Assembly (NCBI RefSeq): GCF_003334815.1
Contig: NZ_QOWO01000026.1
DNA: 62,123 bases
Reading direction: 5' to 3' (one strand)
Source of the DNA: Escherichia coli
GTDB taxonomy: Bacteria > Pseudomonadota > Gammaproteobacteria > Enterobacterales > Enterobacteriaceae
The position numbers and the translations under genes are program-made. Below the pieces are notes generated by a model. The model was not told the origin of the DNA, did not search any database, and saw only the letters and a program-made list of their open reading frames with translations. Below are positions 12,833 to 62,123 of this stretch, piece after piece. Position 1 is the first letter of the stretch. Every line of letters starts with the position of its first letter.

Positions 12833-13576
12833 ATGGCTATAGCACTTGTGACTGGTGGCAGTCGCGGCATCGGGCGGGCAACTGCATTACTGTTGGCGCA
12901 AGAAGGGTATACGGTGGCGGTTAATTATCAGCAAAACCTCCACGCGGCGCAGGAAGTGATGAACTTAATAACGCAAGCCGGTGGCAAAGCATTCGTGCTC
13001 CAGGCGGATATCAGCGACGAAAACCAGGTCGTTGCGATGTTTACAGCAATCGATCAGCACGATGAACCGCTAGCAGCGCTGGTCAATAACGCCGGGATCT
13101 TGTTTACCCAGTGCACCGTTGAAAACCTTACCGCAGAGCGAATCAACCGAGTACTTTCCACCAACGTGACGGGATATTTTCTCTGCTGCCGCGAGGCGGT
13201 AAAACGCATGGCGCTTAAAAATGGTGGCAGTGGCGGCGCTATCGTCAATGTCTCTTCGGTGGCCTCACGGTTGGGTTCGCCAGGGGAATATGTTGATTAC
13301 GCGGCATCGAAAGGGGCGATTGATACGTTAACCACCGGACTATCGCTGGAAGTCGCCGCGCAGGGGATCCGCGTTAACTGCGTGCGGCCAGGGTTTATTT
13401 ATACCGAAATGCACGCCAGCGGCGGCGAGCCTGGACGCGTCGATCGCGTTAAGTCGAACATCCCCATGCAGCGTGGTGGACAGGCAGAAGAGGTCGCGCA
13501 GGCCATTGTCTGGCTACTAAGTGATAAAGCCTCTTACGTCACGGGAAGTTTTATCGATTTGGCGGGCGGGAAATAA
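12833..13576 (+). CDS. ygfF: Short-chain dehydrogenase/reductase family oxidoreductase
   Basis: 247 aa; TGGSRGIG cofactor motif and YAASK catalytic motif. Confidence 0.93.
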   Translation: MAIALVTGGSRGIGRATALLLAQEGYTVAVNYQQNLHAAQEVMNLITQAGGKAFVLQADISDENQVVAMFTAIDQHDEPLAALVNNAGILFTQCTVENLTAERINRVLSTNVTGYFLCCREAVKRMALKNGGSGGAIVNVSSVASRLGSPGEYVDYAASKGAIDTLTTGLSLEVAAQGIRVNCVRPGFIYTEMHASGGEPGRVDRVKSNIPMQRGGQAEEVAQAIVWLLSDKASYVTGSFIDLAGGK

Positions 13577-13593
13577 AACAGGGAAGTTGTCTG

Positions 13594-13621
13594 ACCGGAT
13601 GCAACAAGTATTGCATCCGGT
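13594..13621. terminator. Bidirectional terminator hairpin between ygfF and bglA
   Basis: accggatgcaa-N6-ttgcatccggt, an 11-bp perfect stem between convergent genes. Confidence 0.7.
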
Positions 13622-13632
13622 ACTTCATCGAC

Positions 13633-15093
<1,461 letters not shown>

Positions 15094-15110
15094 TTACAGG
15101 AAATAGTACC

Positions 15111-15422
15111 ATGCAGCCAAACGACATCACTTTTTTTCAACGTTTCCAGGATGACATTCTGGCTGGGCGTAAAACCATCACCATCCGCGACGAGTCTGAA
15201 TCGCACTTCAAAACGGGTGATGTGCTTCGTGTCGGACGTTTTGAAGATGACGGTTATTTTTGCACGATTGAAGTCACCGCAACCTCAACCGTAACGCTGG
15301 ATACGCTGACTGAAAAACATGCAGAGCAGGAAAATATGACCCTGACTGAACTGAAAAAAGTCATTGCTGACATCTATCCCGGTCAGACACAATTTTATGT
15401 GATTGAATTTAAATGTCTTTAA
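15111..15422 (+). CDS. yqfB: ASCH-domain protein YqfB (N4-acetylcytidine amidohydrolase)
   Basis: 103-aa [30 protein letters not shown]. Confidence 0.93.
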
Positions 15423-15582
15423 ATTGAACTCACGCCTGTTAGTTGAAATTTCGCATTTAATTTCATGATTTTTAGGAGATTAGTCTCAAATCAGAATTTA
15501 TTTTAGCTAACAGGTGTTCACTGGAACTATTCTCAGTTACGCTGGAGAGGTATACATGTGCGTGTACGTTTCTCCGGAGTAA

Positions 15583-16245
<663 letters not shown>

Positions 16246-16252
16246 TGGGTAT

Positions 16253-16431
16253 GCCTTTGTAGGCCTGATAAGACGCGCCAGCGTCGCATCAGGCATCGGA
16301 GCACAACTGCCGGATTCGGCGTGAACGCCTTATCCGATCTACGGGCCTCGTCCCTGTTGTGATAAAGGCATCAAATCCCAGACATGATAAGACGCGCCAG
16401 CGTCGCATCAGGCGATAAATGCCTGATGCGA
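16253..16431. repeat. BIME/REP cluster (three REP units)
   Basis: gcctgataagacgcgccagcgtcgcatcaggc-type REP sequences in alternating orientation downstream of yqfA and ygfZ. Confidence 0.9.
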
Positions 16432-16440
16432 TAAAGAGAT

Positions 16441-17421
16441 TTACTCTTCGAGCGAATACGGCAGCGGCTCGATATGCAATGTATTCGCATCGTCGCGTAC
16501 GCGGAAGATGCTATCCGGTTCCATATCGTTATTCATGACGACCTGTACCACGACCTGACCATCTTCCAGTTTTACCGCAGCCAGTACCGTACCGGTACGA
16601 CGCCAGTTCTCGCCCATTTTCAGCTCTAAGTCTTCACCAGCTTCCGGCAGTCGGCTGGCGCTACCTGCCAGCAACCAGAGCGCACGTTTATTGGCACCAC
16701 GGAATTTTGCTCGCGCCACCATCTCTTGTCCGGTATAACAGCCTTTCTTAAAGCTGATACCGCCCAGCGCCTGGAGATTGGTCGCCTGTGGGATAAACTG
16801 CCCGCTGTTGGCGGCATCAATCACCGGGAAACCCGCTTCAATGTTTAATGCCAGCCACTGTTGGCTATTGTTCAGTTCCGCTTCACCGCGCAGTTTATCG
16901 GTCAGCATATTAGCAGTAGCTTCATCGGTTACGATCAGGAAACGTTCTGCCGGGTGTTCAAACCATAGCAAAGTGGTCGCGCCTTCTTTGACTACCTGTT
17001 TTTCTTTCGAAGGCAGTTCGCTAAAGAGATTTGCCAGCGCGGCGCGCGCCTGAAAACCGGCAACACCAAGCAGCACACGCTCGTCGTCTGGCGCGATGGT
17101 CACTTTAGAGAATACCGCATATTTTTTCAGTTCAGTCAGCTGCGGTTCACGCACGCTGCGCCGTTCAATCCATGCAAAGCCATCGCCGTCGCGGAACAGA
17201 CGTAAATTGCTCCACATTTTACCTTTGGCGTCGCAATGGGCGGCGAGCAGGTGCTGATCTTCTGCCATCTGGCTGACATCTGCTGTCACCTGACCCTGCA
17301 TATATTTTTCGCTGTCCGCGCCAGTAATGGTGGCAAGCGCCCAGTCATCAAGCGTCATCAGCGTCAGCGGTAAACGGGCAGAAGCCGTAGGCTGACGGGG
17401 AGGAAAAGGTGTAAAAGCCAT
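16441..17421 (-). CDS. ygfZ: Folate-binding Fe-S cluster repair protein YgfZ
   Basis: 326 aa; GcvT-like fold; KGCYTGQE motif. Confidence 0.96.
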
Positions 17422-59676: not shown

Positions 59677-59750
59677 GCGGGCGTAGTTCAATGGTAGAAC
59701 GAGAGCTTCCCAAGCTCTATACGAGGGTTCGATTCCCTTCGCCCGCTCCA
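59677..59750 (+). tRNA. glyU: tRNA-Gly (anticodon CCC)
   Basis: 74-nt cloverleaf GCGGGCGTAGTTCAATGGTAGAACGAGAGCTTCCCAAGCTCTATACGAGGGTTCGATTCCCTTCGCCCGCTCCA with encoded CCA; acceptor stem GCGGGCG/CGCCCGC; anticodon loop CUUCCCAAG. Confidence 0.97.
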
Positions 59751-59864: not shown

Positions 59865-61511
59865 ATGATTCAGCTATCCAGCAGTCACAAACTTCCAGCC
59901 GTCTCCTATCTCTACCAGCGTAACGGCGTCTACTACTTCCGTCTTCGGGTCAGACAATCAAACAATGATAGAATGACCTCAATATCATTACGGACCAAGG
60001 ATAGACGCACCGCTATGGCTCACTCAAGGCACATCAAGGCAGCACTCAAGGCAATACACGCAGACAGACCCAACGCTACCTATGAGGAAATGAGGGAGCA
60101 CCTTAAGGACATCGCTGAGTGTGAACTGTCTATGGGCCGTTCAGATCTCTTTGAGCCTGACATGAGGGATATCTACCGGGACCAATACGGAGAACTTGGT
60201 GAGAGCCTTACCGATGCTCTGGCTAGTGAGCCGCTAAGTATTGACCAGCATCGTTACATCAATGAGGCCCTGAAGGTGCTAAAAGCCTGCATGAGGCGTA
60301 TCGAAGCGGGAGACAGTCAGCCTCTGATAGATTACGTCGATCATTTTAATGATATTGATAGGCAAGATAGCCAAGTAGCCTCTGTGTCCCTATCTGTTAA
60401 TGCTCCAGAAGTAAAACCAGAAGTAAAACCAGAAGTAAAACTAGAAGTAAAACCAGAAGTTACGCCTAGCATTACCATAGCGAGCCTCTTTGAGCAATAC
60501 GAAGCGGAGAATTATCAGAACTGGAAGCCTGCAACCTTAAGGGAAAACAAGGCGTCACACGCTGCGTTAATCGAAATATTCGACCATCTGGGTCTCAATG
60601 CAGACGCTAACAGGGCTGACATGCTTAAGGTCCGTGATGTGCTCCAGCAGTTACCTAGGAACCGTAAGCAGCGCTTCAAGGATGCCCCACTTGCTGACCT
60701 GTTGAGCCGTGAAGATAAGACAGATTGTCTGGATGTCGTTACCATCAACAACAAGTATCTTATTAAGATGGCTGCTGTCTTTAGGTGGGCTGTGCGCAAT
60801 GACTTGATTAAAAAGAACATGACTGAGGGTCTGGAGCTTAAAGTCCCTCAGCGTAAAGCCTCAGGGGCCCGTAACGCCTTCTCTACGGAGCAGGTGGGGC
60901 AACTACTGGTCGCAGCTAAGGCATACTCTCAGAAGACCTCTGGTAAGCCCTACCACTATTACGTTACGGCTTTGGCTGCTATCACTGGGGCGAGACTCAA
61001 TGAAATAGCCCAACTACAGGTCAAAGACGTCAGGACCACTGAGGCGGGAACCGTTTATATTCATATCAATGAAGACGATAGTAGTCTACCCGGTAAGAGC
61101 ATCAAGAACGCTCATAGTGACCGCTGTGTGCCTCTGGTCGATGGGGCCTATGGTTTTATATTGGCTGACTTTATGAGGTTGGTTGAGACCCGTAGAGGCG
61201 CTGATGGTGATGACGCTATGGTGTTCGATGGTCTTCGCCTCATGAAGAACGGTTACGGTGAGCAGGTGAGTAAATGGTTTAATCGGACGTTGTTGCCTAA
61301 AGTCCTCGCAGATCGTAGCGGCTTAGCGTTTCACTCGTTTAGACATACAGTTGCGACCCAGTTAAAACAACATGGGGTCGAGTTGGCGTATGCACAGGCG
61401 ATCATGGGGCATAGTTCAGGGTCTATTACTTACGACCGTTATGCTAAAGAGGTTGAGGTTGATAGGCTGGTCAATGTGATGGCTGATGTTTATAAGGAGA
61501 TTGTGGGGTAA
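59865..61511 (+). CDS. Tyrosine recombinase / phage-type integrase (548 aa)
   Basis: C-terminal catalytic signature: GARLNEIAQL (Arg), HSFRHTVATQL (His-x-x-Arg), GHSSGSITYDRY (His...Tyr nucleophile). N-terminal YLYQRNGVYYFRLRV arm-type domain. Adjacent to the tRNA. Confidence 0.9.
   Translation: MIQLSSSHKLPAVSYLYQRNGVYYFRLRVRQSNNDRMTSISLRTKDRRTAMAHSRHIKAALKAIHADRPNATYEEMREHLKDIAECELSMGRSDLFEPDMRDIYRDQYGELGESLTDALASEPLSIDQHRYINEALKVLKACMRRIEAGDSQPLIDYVDHFNDIDRQDSQVASVSLSVNAPEVKPEVKPEVKLEVKPEVTPSITIASLFEQYEAENYQNWKPATLRENKASHAALIEIFDHLGLNADANRADMLKVRDVLQQLPRNRKQRFKDAPLADLLSREDKTDCLDVVTINNKYLIKMAAVFRWAVRNDLIKKNMTEGLELKVPQRKASGARNAFSTEQVGQLLVAAKAYSQKTSGKPYHYYVTALAAITGARLNEIAQLQVKDVRTTEAGTVYIHINEDDSSLPGKSIKNAHSDRCVPLVDGAYGFILADFMRLVETRRGADGDDAMVFDGLRLMKNGYGEQVSKWFNRTLLPKVLADRSGLAFHSFRHTVATQLKQHGVELAYAQAIMGHSSGSITYDRYAKEVEVDRLVNVMADVYKEIVG
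60380..60399 (+). other. 20-nt match to the T7 terminal-repeat end plus the concatemer-junction class II pause signal (CTCTGTGTCCCT|ATCTGTTA)
   Basis: Compared with my recollection of the T7 left end (...GAGTGTCTCTCTGTGTCCCTATCTGTTACAGTCTCC...). Contains the conserved ATCTGTT heptamer at 60392-60398. Lies in frame inside the integrase linker region. Confidence 0.55.
60405..60464 (+). repeat. In-frame 12-bp tandem repeat x5 encoding PEVK-PEVK-PEVK-LEVK-PEVT
   Basis: ccagaagtaaaa x3, ctagaagtaaaa, ccagaagttacg read directly. Confidence 0.95.
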
Positions 61512-61631
61512 CCAAGCTGTCCACCCCCGGGGAGATTTGCCTTGAGGATGACCATAGTCGATGACCATATTGCTACAGGCCTGTGTGGTCATGTTTTTGA
61601 CTCACGGTTTTCACTACTTGTCAAGGATTTC

Positions 61632-61654
61632 TAATACGACTCACTATAGAGAGA
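61632..61654 (+). promoter_or_regulatory. Bacteriophage T7 RNA polymerase promoter (22/23 match to consensus)
   Basis: TAATACGACTCACTATAGAGAGA versus the consensus TAATACGACTCACTATAGGGAGA. All of -17..-1 is identical, +1 G falls at 61649, and the only mismatch is at +2. Confidence 0.85.
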
Positions 61655-61769
61655 AGGGACACAAAAAGTTTTCTCTCTTTCTCTCTCTTCTAGGACACTT
61701 GCTACTACTACTACAGGCCTGTGTGGTCATGTTTTTGACTCACAGTTTTCACTACTTGTCAAGGATTTC

Positions 61770-61792
61770 TAATGCGACTCACTATAGAGAGA
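61770..61792 (+). promoter_or_regulatory. Second T7 RNA polymerase promoter (21/23 match)
   Basis: TAATGCGACTCACTATAGAGAGA: A-to-G at -13 and G-to-A at +2; +1 G at 61787. Confidence 0.8.
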
Positions 61793-61860
61793 AGGGACAC
61801 AAAAAGTTTTCTCTCTTTCTCTCTCTTCTAGGACACTTGCTACTACTACTACAGGTAGCT

Positions 61861-61896
61861 CTAACTCTAACTCTAACTCTAACTCTAACCGTAACT
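61861..61896 (+). repeat. Hexanucleotide microsatellite (CTAACT)4 plus two degenerate units
   Basis: ctaact x4, then ctaacc and gtaact, read directly immediately after the 138-bp repeats. Confidence 0.95.
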
Positions 61897-62046
61897 TATC
61901 GCATCCTTTCAGGGGCGGGATGACCAATTACAGACACCAAGCGTTCTACTTAAAGTGAATGCTTCCTGTGTGCTCTGGGTCAGTCGATAAGTGAATAGCA
62001 ATAGACATCATATTAAATATGGTCTCTACCCTACAGGGGCTTAACT

Positions 62047-62123
62047 CTGATGAATCCCCTAATGATTTTGGTAAAAATCATTAAGTTAAGGTGGATACAC
62101 ATCTTGTCATATGATCAAATGGT
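62047..62123 (+). mobile_element. IS10 outside end (first 77 bp; the element continues past the window)
   Basis: CTGATGAATCCCCTAATGATTTTGGTAAAAATCATTAAGTTAAGGTGGATACACATCTTGTCATATGATCAAATGGT matches the IS10/Tn10 outside terminus, including the pIN region with its dam GATC (62113-62116). The flanking 9 bp GGCTTAACT resembles the NGCTNAGCN target hotspot. Confidence 0.9.

Follow-up and report, generated by a model that had tools for sequence, protein, structure and literature searches.

Why should the chromosome of an enteric bacterium carry two adjacent, near-perfect promoters for the RNA polymerase of phage T7? The question was raised by a first-pass annotation of a 62,123-nucleotide stretch of Escherichia coli DNA (RefSeq assembly GCF_003334815.1, contig NZ_QOWO01000026.1; hereafter the window), in which such promoters stand near the right end. 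We compared the locus with its relatives in other genomes and metagenomes and with phage sequences. The comparison suggests that the promoters are probably cis-acting parts of a small integrative element inserted at a tRNA-Gly gene, one of a family of elements that probably live as satellites on virulent phages of the T7-like group (Studiervirinae).

The whole window was searched with the T7 class III consensus TAATACGACTCACTATAGGGAGA (positions -17 to +6), allowing up to three mismatches. Exactly two sites were recovered, both on the plus strand and reading rightward as first described; 100 shuffled sequences gave none, and the analytic expectation of sites with up to two mismatches across the window was 4e-6. 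Copy 1 (TAATACGACTCACTATAGAGAGA, 61632-61654) agrees with the consensus at 22 of 23 positions, its single mismatch being G to A at +2, and has its predicted start at G 61649. Copy 2 (TAATGCGACTCACTATAGAGAGA, 61770-61792) agrees at 21 of 23, with A to G at -13 besides the same change at +2, and would start at G 61787. The specificity bases from -12 to -8 are CGACT in both. An A at +2 is also present in phi1.1A and phi4c of T7, and 11 of T7's own 17 promoters deviate more from the consensus than either window copy; judged by their sequence, both window promoters should be usable by T7 RNA polymerase. The T7 promoter phiOR is a perfect match to the consensus, and the canonical promoter of the family described below equals both phiOR and the class III consensus. 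The in-register duplication reported by the annotation was also borne out: a promoter unit of 138 bp is repeated in tandem in about 2.05-2.1 copies (61573-61855, plus strand; Tandem Repeats Finder, 98% matches), and its two full copies differ only at 61606 (G/A) and 61636 (A/G). Homologous units are present in one to three copies in relatives.

Comparison with annotated genomes placed the window in the E. coli chromosome, in the neighbourhood of ygeW, ygeV, xdhABC, actS and tRNA-Gly. The tRNA-Gly(CCC) gene lies at 59677-59750 (plus strand; ARAGORN), and its last 23 bases, TTCGATTCCCTTCGCCCGCTCCA (59728-59750, plus strand), form the core of the left attachment site, attL. In relatives a perfect copy of this 23-mer in direct orientation, attR, stands 2.8-6.6 kb further downstream (loci L001-L005, L010, L030-L035, L040 and L049); such attL/attR pairs come from E. 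coli, from Klebsiella and from metagenomes, and they show that the promoters are part of a discrete integrative element. Its integrase gene is an intact open reading frame for a tyrosine integrase of 548 amino acids (aa) at 59865-61511 (plus strand; Pfam Phage_integrase, 2e-18, and DUF6538; PHROG 1 integrase, 2e-45). The stop codon of this gene is followed by a noncoding region of about 1 kb, in which the first promoter begins 120 bp past the stop. Integrase homologues 77-100% identical to it head those family members that have an integrase in the fetched DNA, the Yersinia locus having one of 31% identity. Homologous DNA was found in 92 of 5426 complete E. coli genomes, where it is chromosomal in all cases and always at the same tRNA; the carrier strains are of animal, human and water origin, and the locus occurs in metagenomes as well. 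We also considered whether the island might be part of the ETT2 secretion island and rejected this, as attR precedes the start of ETT2.

Promoter types across the family

Relatives of the element were found in E. coli, Klebsiella, Pectobacterium and Yersinia, and intact ones measure 4.1-6.6 kb where both att repeats were found, an example being the E. coli element at 13227-17395 of locus L002 (strain NT1N31). Each carries one to four promoters after the integrase, and these have the exact consensus of the T7-like phages of the host genus (T7, K11, KP32 or Pectobacterium MA6 type). Perfect (23/23) T7 promoters, one or two in each, are present in six diverged E. coli loci, and the relatives hold the perfect consensus at the position of window copy 1. 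When 14 distinct promoter units were aligned, 22 of 57 columns were variable upstream of the promoter as against 2 of 23 within it, and the variation inside the promoter was confined to the window copies and one copy in locus L002. A search of species-representative genomes (185,579 species, one genome each) gave nine matches to the exact T7 promoter. The sole match on a large chromosome was in Klebsiella pneumoniae ATCC 13883 (locus L010), and it proved to be a homologous element in which a homologous integrase is followed by a promoter cluster of K11 type, T7 type, K11 type again and a third type.

A conserved noncoding anchor (exact match of 25-26 nt), which is also present in locus L046, was used to retrieve 23 metagenome loci. 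Five promoter types occur across the family, in varying combinations and at fixed distances from this anchor: the T7 type (TAATACGACTCACTATAGGGAGA), the K11 type (AATTAGGGCACACTATAGGGAGA), the third type just mentioned, which is the promoter of KP32-like Klebsiella phages (AATTAGGTAGCACTATAGGGAGA), a T7/T3 hybrid (CAATACGACTCACTAAAGGGAGA), and a T7-like type with other bases at -17 to -13. The K11 and KP32 types interchange at one homologous position within near-identical flanks. The phages themselves hold exact copies of their own type, six in T7, three in K11 and five in KP32, the last of which has the core ten times and none of the other types. For the promoter of the Pectobacterium member, AATTAACCCTCACTATAGGGAGA, the best match was with the Pectobacterium phages MA6 and MA1A. 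Promoters of a single element can serve up to three different phage polymerases, and we know of no phage that carries promoters for three different polymerases. Such mixed promoters in single elements argue that selection has favoured a response to any T7-like phage that enters the cell.

The annotation had proposed a BLAST comparison with phage and bacterial genomes as a check. When the 548-bp region of the window and a 1.1-kb region of a relative were compared with 50,697 phage genomes, only the promoter 23-mers matched, and the promoter region is therefore not phage DNA; the bacterial side of the same check is given by the 92 E. coli genomes above. Scans of viral contigs recovered three loci only, and these read as bacterial chromosome or prophage DNA with insertion sequences (IS), not as free virions.

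Origin-like and packaging-like signals

A second kind of phage signal is found inside the integrase gene, in the part that encodes the linker of the protein. The 20-mer CTCTGTGTCCCTATCTGTTA at 60380-60399 (plus strand) is identical at 20 of 20 positions to nucleotides 149-168 of T7, a stretch made up of the final 12 bases of the terminal repeat (160 bp) and the ATCTGTTA that comes next, and it reproduces the right boundary of the repeat, or concatemer junction, as CTCTGTGTCCCT/ATCTGTTA (the slash marks the boundary). At the same place it is identical at 19 of 19 positions to K11 170-188 and KP32 167-185, and the K11 record labels this site 'concatemeric junction'. The chance expectation of the 20-mer was 1.7e-4. 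The mimic contains ATCTGTT, the class II pause and termination signal of T7 RNA polymerase at the T7 concatemer junction (bioRxiv 10.1101/2021.01.11.426313). Of roughly 30 family loci whose sequence includes this stretch of the integrase, about 20 have the exact 20-mer and nearly all others the core TATCTGTTA, while the integrase linker on both sides diverges and includes indels, which indicates that the junction mimic is under constraint at the DNA level. Right after it, the linker sequence contains a 12-bp tandem repeat, CCAGAAGTAAAA, in 4.7 copies (60405-60460, plus strand; Tandem Repeats Finder), which encodes PEVK repeats and varies in copy number between relatives.

The left boundary is imitated as well. 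In relatives, about 260 bp before attR, there are sequences such as TTTAAAATTTCCCACAAAAATCTCAGCGTCTA/TCTAATAGT, which over 38 nt show 84% identity (E=2e-5) to the left-end cut of T7, TTTAAAATATACCATAAAAATCTGAGTGACTA/TCTCACAGT. In six aligned left-boundary sequences 28 columns are invariant, among them those of a C-run that T7 and K11 also have, about 25 nt inside the genome end. A putative packaging signal matched to the helper phage is present as the right mimic in the window and nearly all relatives, and as the left mimic in 19 loci, where its distance to attR is constant. Both mimics are on the promoter strand, and the right one lies about 650 bp after attL. The order of boundaries seen in T7 arises only after circularisation or concatemer formation, when promoters, cargo, left boundary, attP, the 5' part of the integrase gene and right boundary follow one another; the pseudo terminal repeat so formed is about 0.92 kb long and spans attP.

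In relatives, an AT-rich region (19-26% GC) is located about 250-450 bp downstream of the promoters, and it is composed of YTAAAG repeats with a strand bias like that at the left end of T7; in the window it is cut off by an IS. The annotation had suggested a mimic of a T7-type origin, and the sequence agrees with this in some respects. Like phi1.1A and phi1.1B of the T7 primary origin, which are 75 bp apart, the promoters of the element are tandem T7 promoters that fire toward an AT-rich segment. However, this segment lies about 250 bp downstream instead of following immediately, the number of promoters ranges from one to four, and no similarity to the T7 primary origin was found beyond the promoters.

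The closest engineered counterparts are plasmids. T7 replicates, packages and transduces plasmids of 3.5-9.7 kb that bear a T7 origin, a pac site and a terminal repeat, as summarised in PMC13236587 (citing Chung & Hinkle 1990). The element resembles such phagemids in size range and in its three kinds of cis signal, namely a promoter-type origin, a concatemer junction and a terminal repeat. It differs from them in being natural and integrated, in having its own integrase, in having its two repeat boundaries on either side of the att site, at a distance of about 0.9 kb, and in carrying promoters for several polymerases, and it contains no T7 DNA except the promoters and the two boundary motifs. 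By analogy, it reads like a natural T7 phagemid.

Cargo, proposed life cycle and competing explanations

The cargo of the relatives is modular. First, a DNA-binding regulator of the KilA-N, Rha or Bro-N type follows the promoters in all intact members. Second, the defence gene RAZR (PD-T7-4), which encodes a protein with a zinc finger and a DUF4145/HEPN domain, is situated between integrase and promoters in L010 (2319-2951) and about 18 other family loci (8e-99), and is absent from the window, L001-L009 and L049. RAZR is described as an abortive-infection RNase that works from its own promoter and is triggered by, among others, the portal proteins of T7 and T3 (PMC13017515), and PD-T7-4 is said to be a system that 'often overlaps an integrase gene' (PMC9519451). 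In term searches of the main texts of these two papers, neither natural T7 promoters nor mimics of terminal repeats came up, and the RAZR locus was nowhere described as a satellite.

Third, some members encode virion-like proteins. A capsid-like protein with the HK97 fold, of 373-393 aa, is encoded at L010 5405-6532, L006 9935-11056, L046 8001-9182 and L048 8001-9146. Only a fold search identified it; sequence searches with the protein in forms of 375-402 aa against Pfam, PHROG, NCBIfam and PDB gave nothing. Its gene is always preceded by that of a DUF6971 protein, the C-terminal part of which is charged and rich in lysine, arginine and glutamate, and which is a possible scaffold. In Yersinia enterocolitica, L046 9503-13600 encodes a full-length homologue of gp16, an internal virion protein of T7 (43% identity over 1389 aa). 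The L046 element also has an HNH gene, and it seemingly lies between pntB and pntA, not at a tRNA. Apart from this gp16 gene in Yersinia, no T7-like core gene (RNA polymerase, DNA polymerase, primase/helicase, portal or terminase) was present in the family loci examined. None of the scanned cargo proteins matched a replication-initiator or terminase family, and no element among the family loci has a full set of virion genes. The elements thus show the hallmarks of satellites: an integrase with att repeats, a size of 2.8-6.6 kb, far below the helper genome, and no complete set of phage genes. Comparison with relatives lends strong support to the core of the annotation's proposal, an island that exploits T7-type phage machinery as an origin mimic, as an infection-triggered switch for satellite genes, or both: promoter types track the local phages, the promoters are followed by an AT-rich region, both terminal-repeat boundaries of T7/K11 are imitated, and relatives hold capsid-like and gp16-like genes. 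The annotation had not noted the packaging signals, the limits of the element, the IS insertion or the degenerate state of this copy.

A fuller account can be built on these observations, and we give it about an even chance of being right as a whole: Enterobacterales would harbour minimal satellites, all of one family, that depend on T7-like phages of strictly virulent habit. The single-subunit RNA polymerase of the helper would induce them in cis through interchangeable promoter cassettes (T7, K11, KP32 and other types), and they would be packaged by way of a pseudo terminal repeat that is split by att and has one boundary signal within the integrase coding sequence, so that the DNA would become a substrate only after excision; some members would build or resize heads with their own HK97-fold capsid protein, and some would carry RAZR. 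The mechanism inferred for the probable satellite runs as follows. On infection, the phage RNA polymerase would fire the promoters of the element, which would express the regulator of the KilA-N, Rha or Bro-N type together with small genes, possibly including an excision factor. The same transcription would open the AT-rich region for the phage replisome, as at T7 origins. Excision and concatemer formation would then unite the boundary mimics into the pseudo terminal repeat of about 0.9 kb spanning attP, polymerase coming from the promoters would pause at ATCTGTT, and the phage terminase would cut and package the DNA. The minimal forms, of 4 kb, would enter full-size heads as multimers, and the forms with a capsid-like gene of their own perhaps smaller heads.

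PICIs respond to temperate helpers, which derepress them by protein-protein contact, and they have their own replication and terminase-small-subunit genes. The present family differs from SaPI, PICI and cf-PICI in that its induction is proposed to occur in cis, through helper promoters. PICMI of the Vibrionaceae are described as satellites of virulent phages that are very small, have few genes, lack any for capsid remodelling and are packaged as concatemers (PMC10803314). Compared by description only, this is also what the present account proposes for the E. coli forms of 4 kb; the differences are that PICMI belong to another host group, that their abstract mentions neither helper-polymerase promoters nor terminal-repeat mimicry, and that some of the present members have a capsid-fold gene. 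If the account is right, the family would be phage satellites with a new cis-acting logic, their closest analogues being PICMI, PICI/cf-PICI and the engineered T7 phagemids. No account of satellites of T7-like phages, or of natural T7-type promoters in islands of this kind, came up in a literature search with incomplete journal coverage.

Several observations weigh against the elements being satellites of this kind. Beyond the short signals, no homology to T7 origin or pac DNA was found in the searched regions, and the pseudo repeat of about 0.9 kb is far longer than the 160-180 bp of T7 and K11. The model of the capsid-like protein has a pLDDT of 63, a moderate confidence, and a profile comparison with T7 gp10 gave nothing. 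Circular or tandem junctions were sought in all loci with two att sites and none was found; all 23 metagenome loci and all three from viral collections are in the integrated form. The promoters point away from the integrase in the integrated state, which leaves the start of excision unaccounted for, and the window copy itself lacks half of the proposed machinery. Furthermore, several members carry RAZR, whose abortive infection is lethal to the cell that a satellite needs, although defences borne on satellites are common.

The strongest rival is that the element is a defence island and nothing else. Its phage promoters would sense infection and switch on toxic or regulatory cargo (KilA-N, Rha, Bro-N), the promoters and junction mimic would perhaps be decoys for RNA polymerase and terminase, and the phage would neither package nor transfer the DNA. 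The silence of T7-type promoters without phage polymerase, the regulator genes that follow the promoters in all intact members, the validated anti-T7 defence in many of them, and the absence of any packaged or excised form from the loci examined would all fit. We nevertheless consider it unlikely, since RAZR lies upstream of the promoters and has a promoter of its own (PMC13017515), and since a sensor would need neither copies of two terminal-repeat boundaries that become contiguous only on excision nor a capsid-fold protein and a gp16 homologue; the elements are, besides, clearly mobile across genera, with att sites intact. The annotation's suggestion that an infection-triggered switch drives downstream cargo fails for the lineage of the window, of which the closest relative, L049, has no cargo. 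For a titration of T7 RNA polymerase, which it had also raised, no evidence was found.

That the loci are remnants of a temperate T7-like phage once integrated at tRNA-Gly, with promoters and ends as functionless leftovers, appears quite improbable. No RNA polymerase, DNA polymerase, primase or other core T7 gene exists in any member examined save the gp16 gene in Yersinia, which together with the T7-like end motifs would suit a remnant, and single elements carry promoters for three polymerases. Many E. coli copies are visibly decaying, and integrase-bearing T7-like phages such as LUZ100 have been reported (PMC10134795); yet promoters and boundary signals are much better conserved than their flanks, and sizes are tightly clustered, with perfect att repeats in several genera.

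A laboratory artefact, that is, DNA of a cloning vector or expression strain or contamination of the assembly, has next to no probability: the T7 promoter is ubiquitous in vectors, most of the other exact matches in species genomes are on short contigs that may be contaminants, and an IS10-family end adjoins the site, but occurrence in 92 natural E. coli chromosomes and in metagenomes excludes a laboratory origin, K11- and KP32-type promoters stand at the same positions in Klebsiella, and the flanks, with E. coli chromosomal genes, a tRNA-linked integrase and family-specific repeats, are not those of a vector, just as the annotation had judged.

T7 and its relatives are the textbook examples of strictly lytic phages, and for phage therapy against E. 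coli and Klebsiella they are among the leading candidates. If satellites of such phages exist as proposed, promoter mimicry with swappable specificity would be a new route of helper sensing, and a packaging site split across att and overlapping coding sequence would be a new way of hiding it. Phages thought not to transduce would provide a natural route of gene transfer, and the anti-T7 defence RAZR would be placed in a mobile, phage-exploiting context. In practical terms, natural parts for T7, K11 and KP32 phagemids would become available for engineering, and T7-based expression or phage-therapy constructs could elicit a response from wild E. coli and Klebsiella strains that have perfect T7 or K11 promoters.

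Window lineage and noncoding features

The closest relative of the window copy is L049 (9864-12722, GCA_018427835.1), which shares its integrase protein and both imperfect promoters but has no IS. In the window, the element is interrupted by the outer end of an insertion sequence of the IS10/ISVsa5 family (62047-62123, plus strand; 100% identical to ends beside genes annotated 'IS4-like element ISVsa5 family transposase'). The insertion is located precisely at the point at which the AT-rich region of TTAAAG repeats begins in the relatives; the window stops inside the IS, and at this position L049 continues with ...GGGGCTTAACTTAAAGTTAAC. The L049 element measures 2.84 kb and consists only of integrase, promoters, a conserved block and AT-rich repeats, lacking both a cargo gene and the left-boundary mimic, and its CTA microsatellite is expanded to about 20 copies. 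Since its lineage has lost cargo and left boundary, the window copy is a decayed member of the family, additionally hit by an IS10-family insertion, and the substitutions in its promoters fit relaxed selection. In another group of E. coli hits (H91-H111, including H104 from an O103:H2 isolate) 16-34% of the query is covered, from about base 343, downstream of both promoters. Such partial matches suggest that next to ETT2 the element has decayed in many strains.

Downstream of the promoters, about 113 nt make up the most conserved noncoding block of the family (61887-61999, plus strand; AACCGTAACTTATCGCATCCTTTCAGGGGCGGGATG ... GGTCAGTCGATAAGTGAATAGC) and provide the anchor that the 23 metagenome loci and L046 share. 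Its outer stem is ACTTATCG/CGATAAGT in E. coli and ACTCATCG/CGATGAGT in Klebsiella, a compensatory change, and 7 of its 20 predicted pairs have double changes. With this covarying outer stem and inner hairpins, the block may be a structured RNA or DNA element, and it is predicted to be transcribed from the phage-type promoters. Rfam gave no match in the noncoding and cargo regions, and the single-sequence fold of 61787-62047, a longer stretch containing the block, had a z-score of only -1.9.

Each 138-bp unit comprises CTGTGTGGTCAT, an inverted repeat TTGAC...GTCAA, the T7 promoter, AGGGACACAAAAAG, a CT-rich tract and CTA repeats. The inverted repeat is found at 61594-61626 and 61732-61764 in the window and at 3030-3050 in L010; it precedes the promoters of the E. 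coli-type units and also the K11- and KP32-type promoters of the Klebsiella elements, and it may be a regulator binding site or a host promoter element. Two direct repeats of GATGACCATA(G/T), read directly at 61547-61570 (plus strand), stand between the stop codon of the integrase gene and the first unit; they number two to four in relatives and present TGGTC on the minus strand of each copy. Beyond the units, a CTCTAA hexamer is repeated 5.2 times (61859-61889, plus strand; Tandem Repeats Finder), and comparison with L001, L002 and L049 showed that the length of this array differs between strains.

The T7 primase pentamers GGGTC, TGGTC and GTGTC occur in tandem arrays at L006 6630-6760 (for example AGGGTCTCTCT, ten times), at L002 15040-15100 and 15740-15770, and at 61547-61600 of the window. 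Enrichment of primase sites over shuffled sequences was tried as evidence of an origin and down-weighted, because it stems from these tandem arrays and the real T7 origin has no such enrichment. Finally, at L008 3758 and L009 1834 the same kind of element is found beside a different tRNA-like att sequence, TTCGATTCCCGCTGCCCGCTCCA, in what appears to be a lambdoid prophage region, and the elements may also target prophage-borne tRNA genes.

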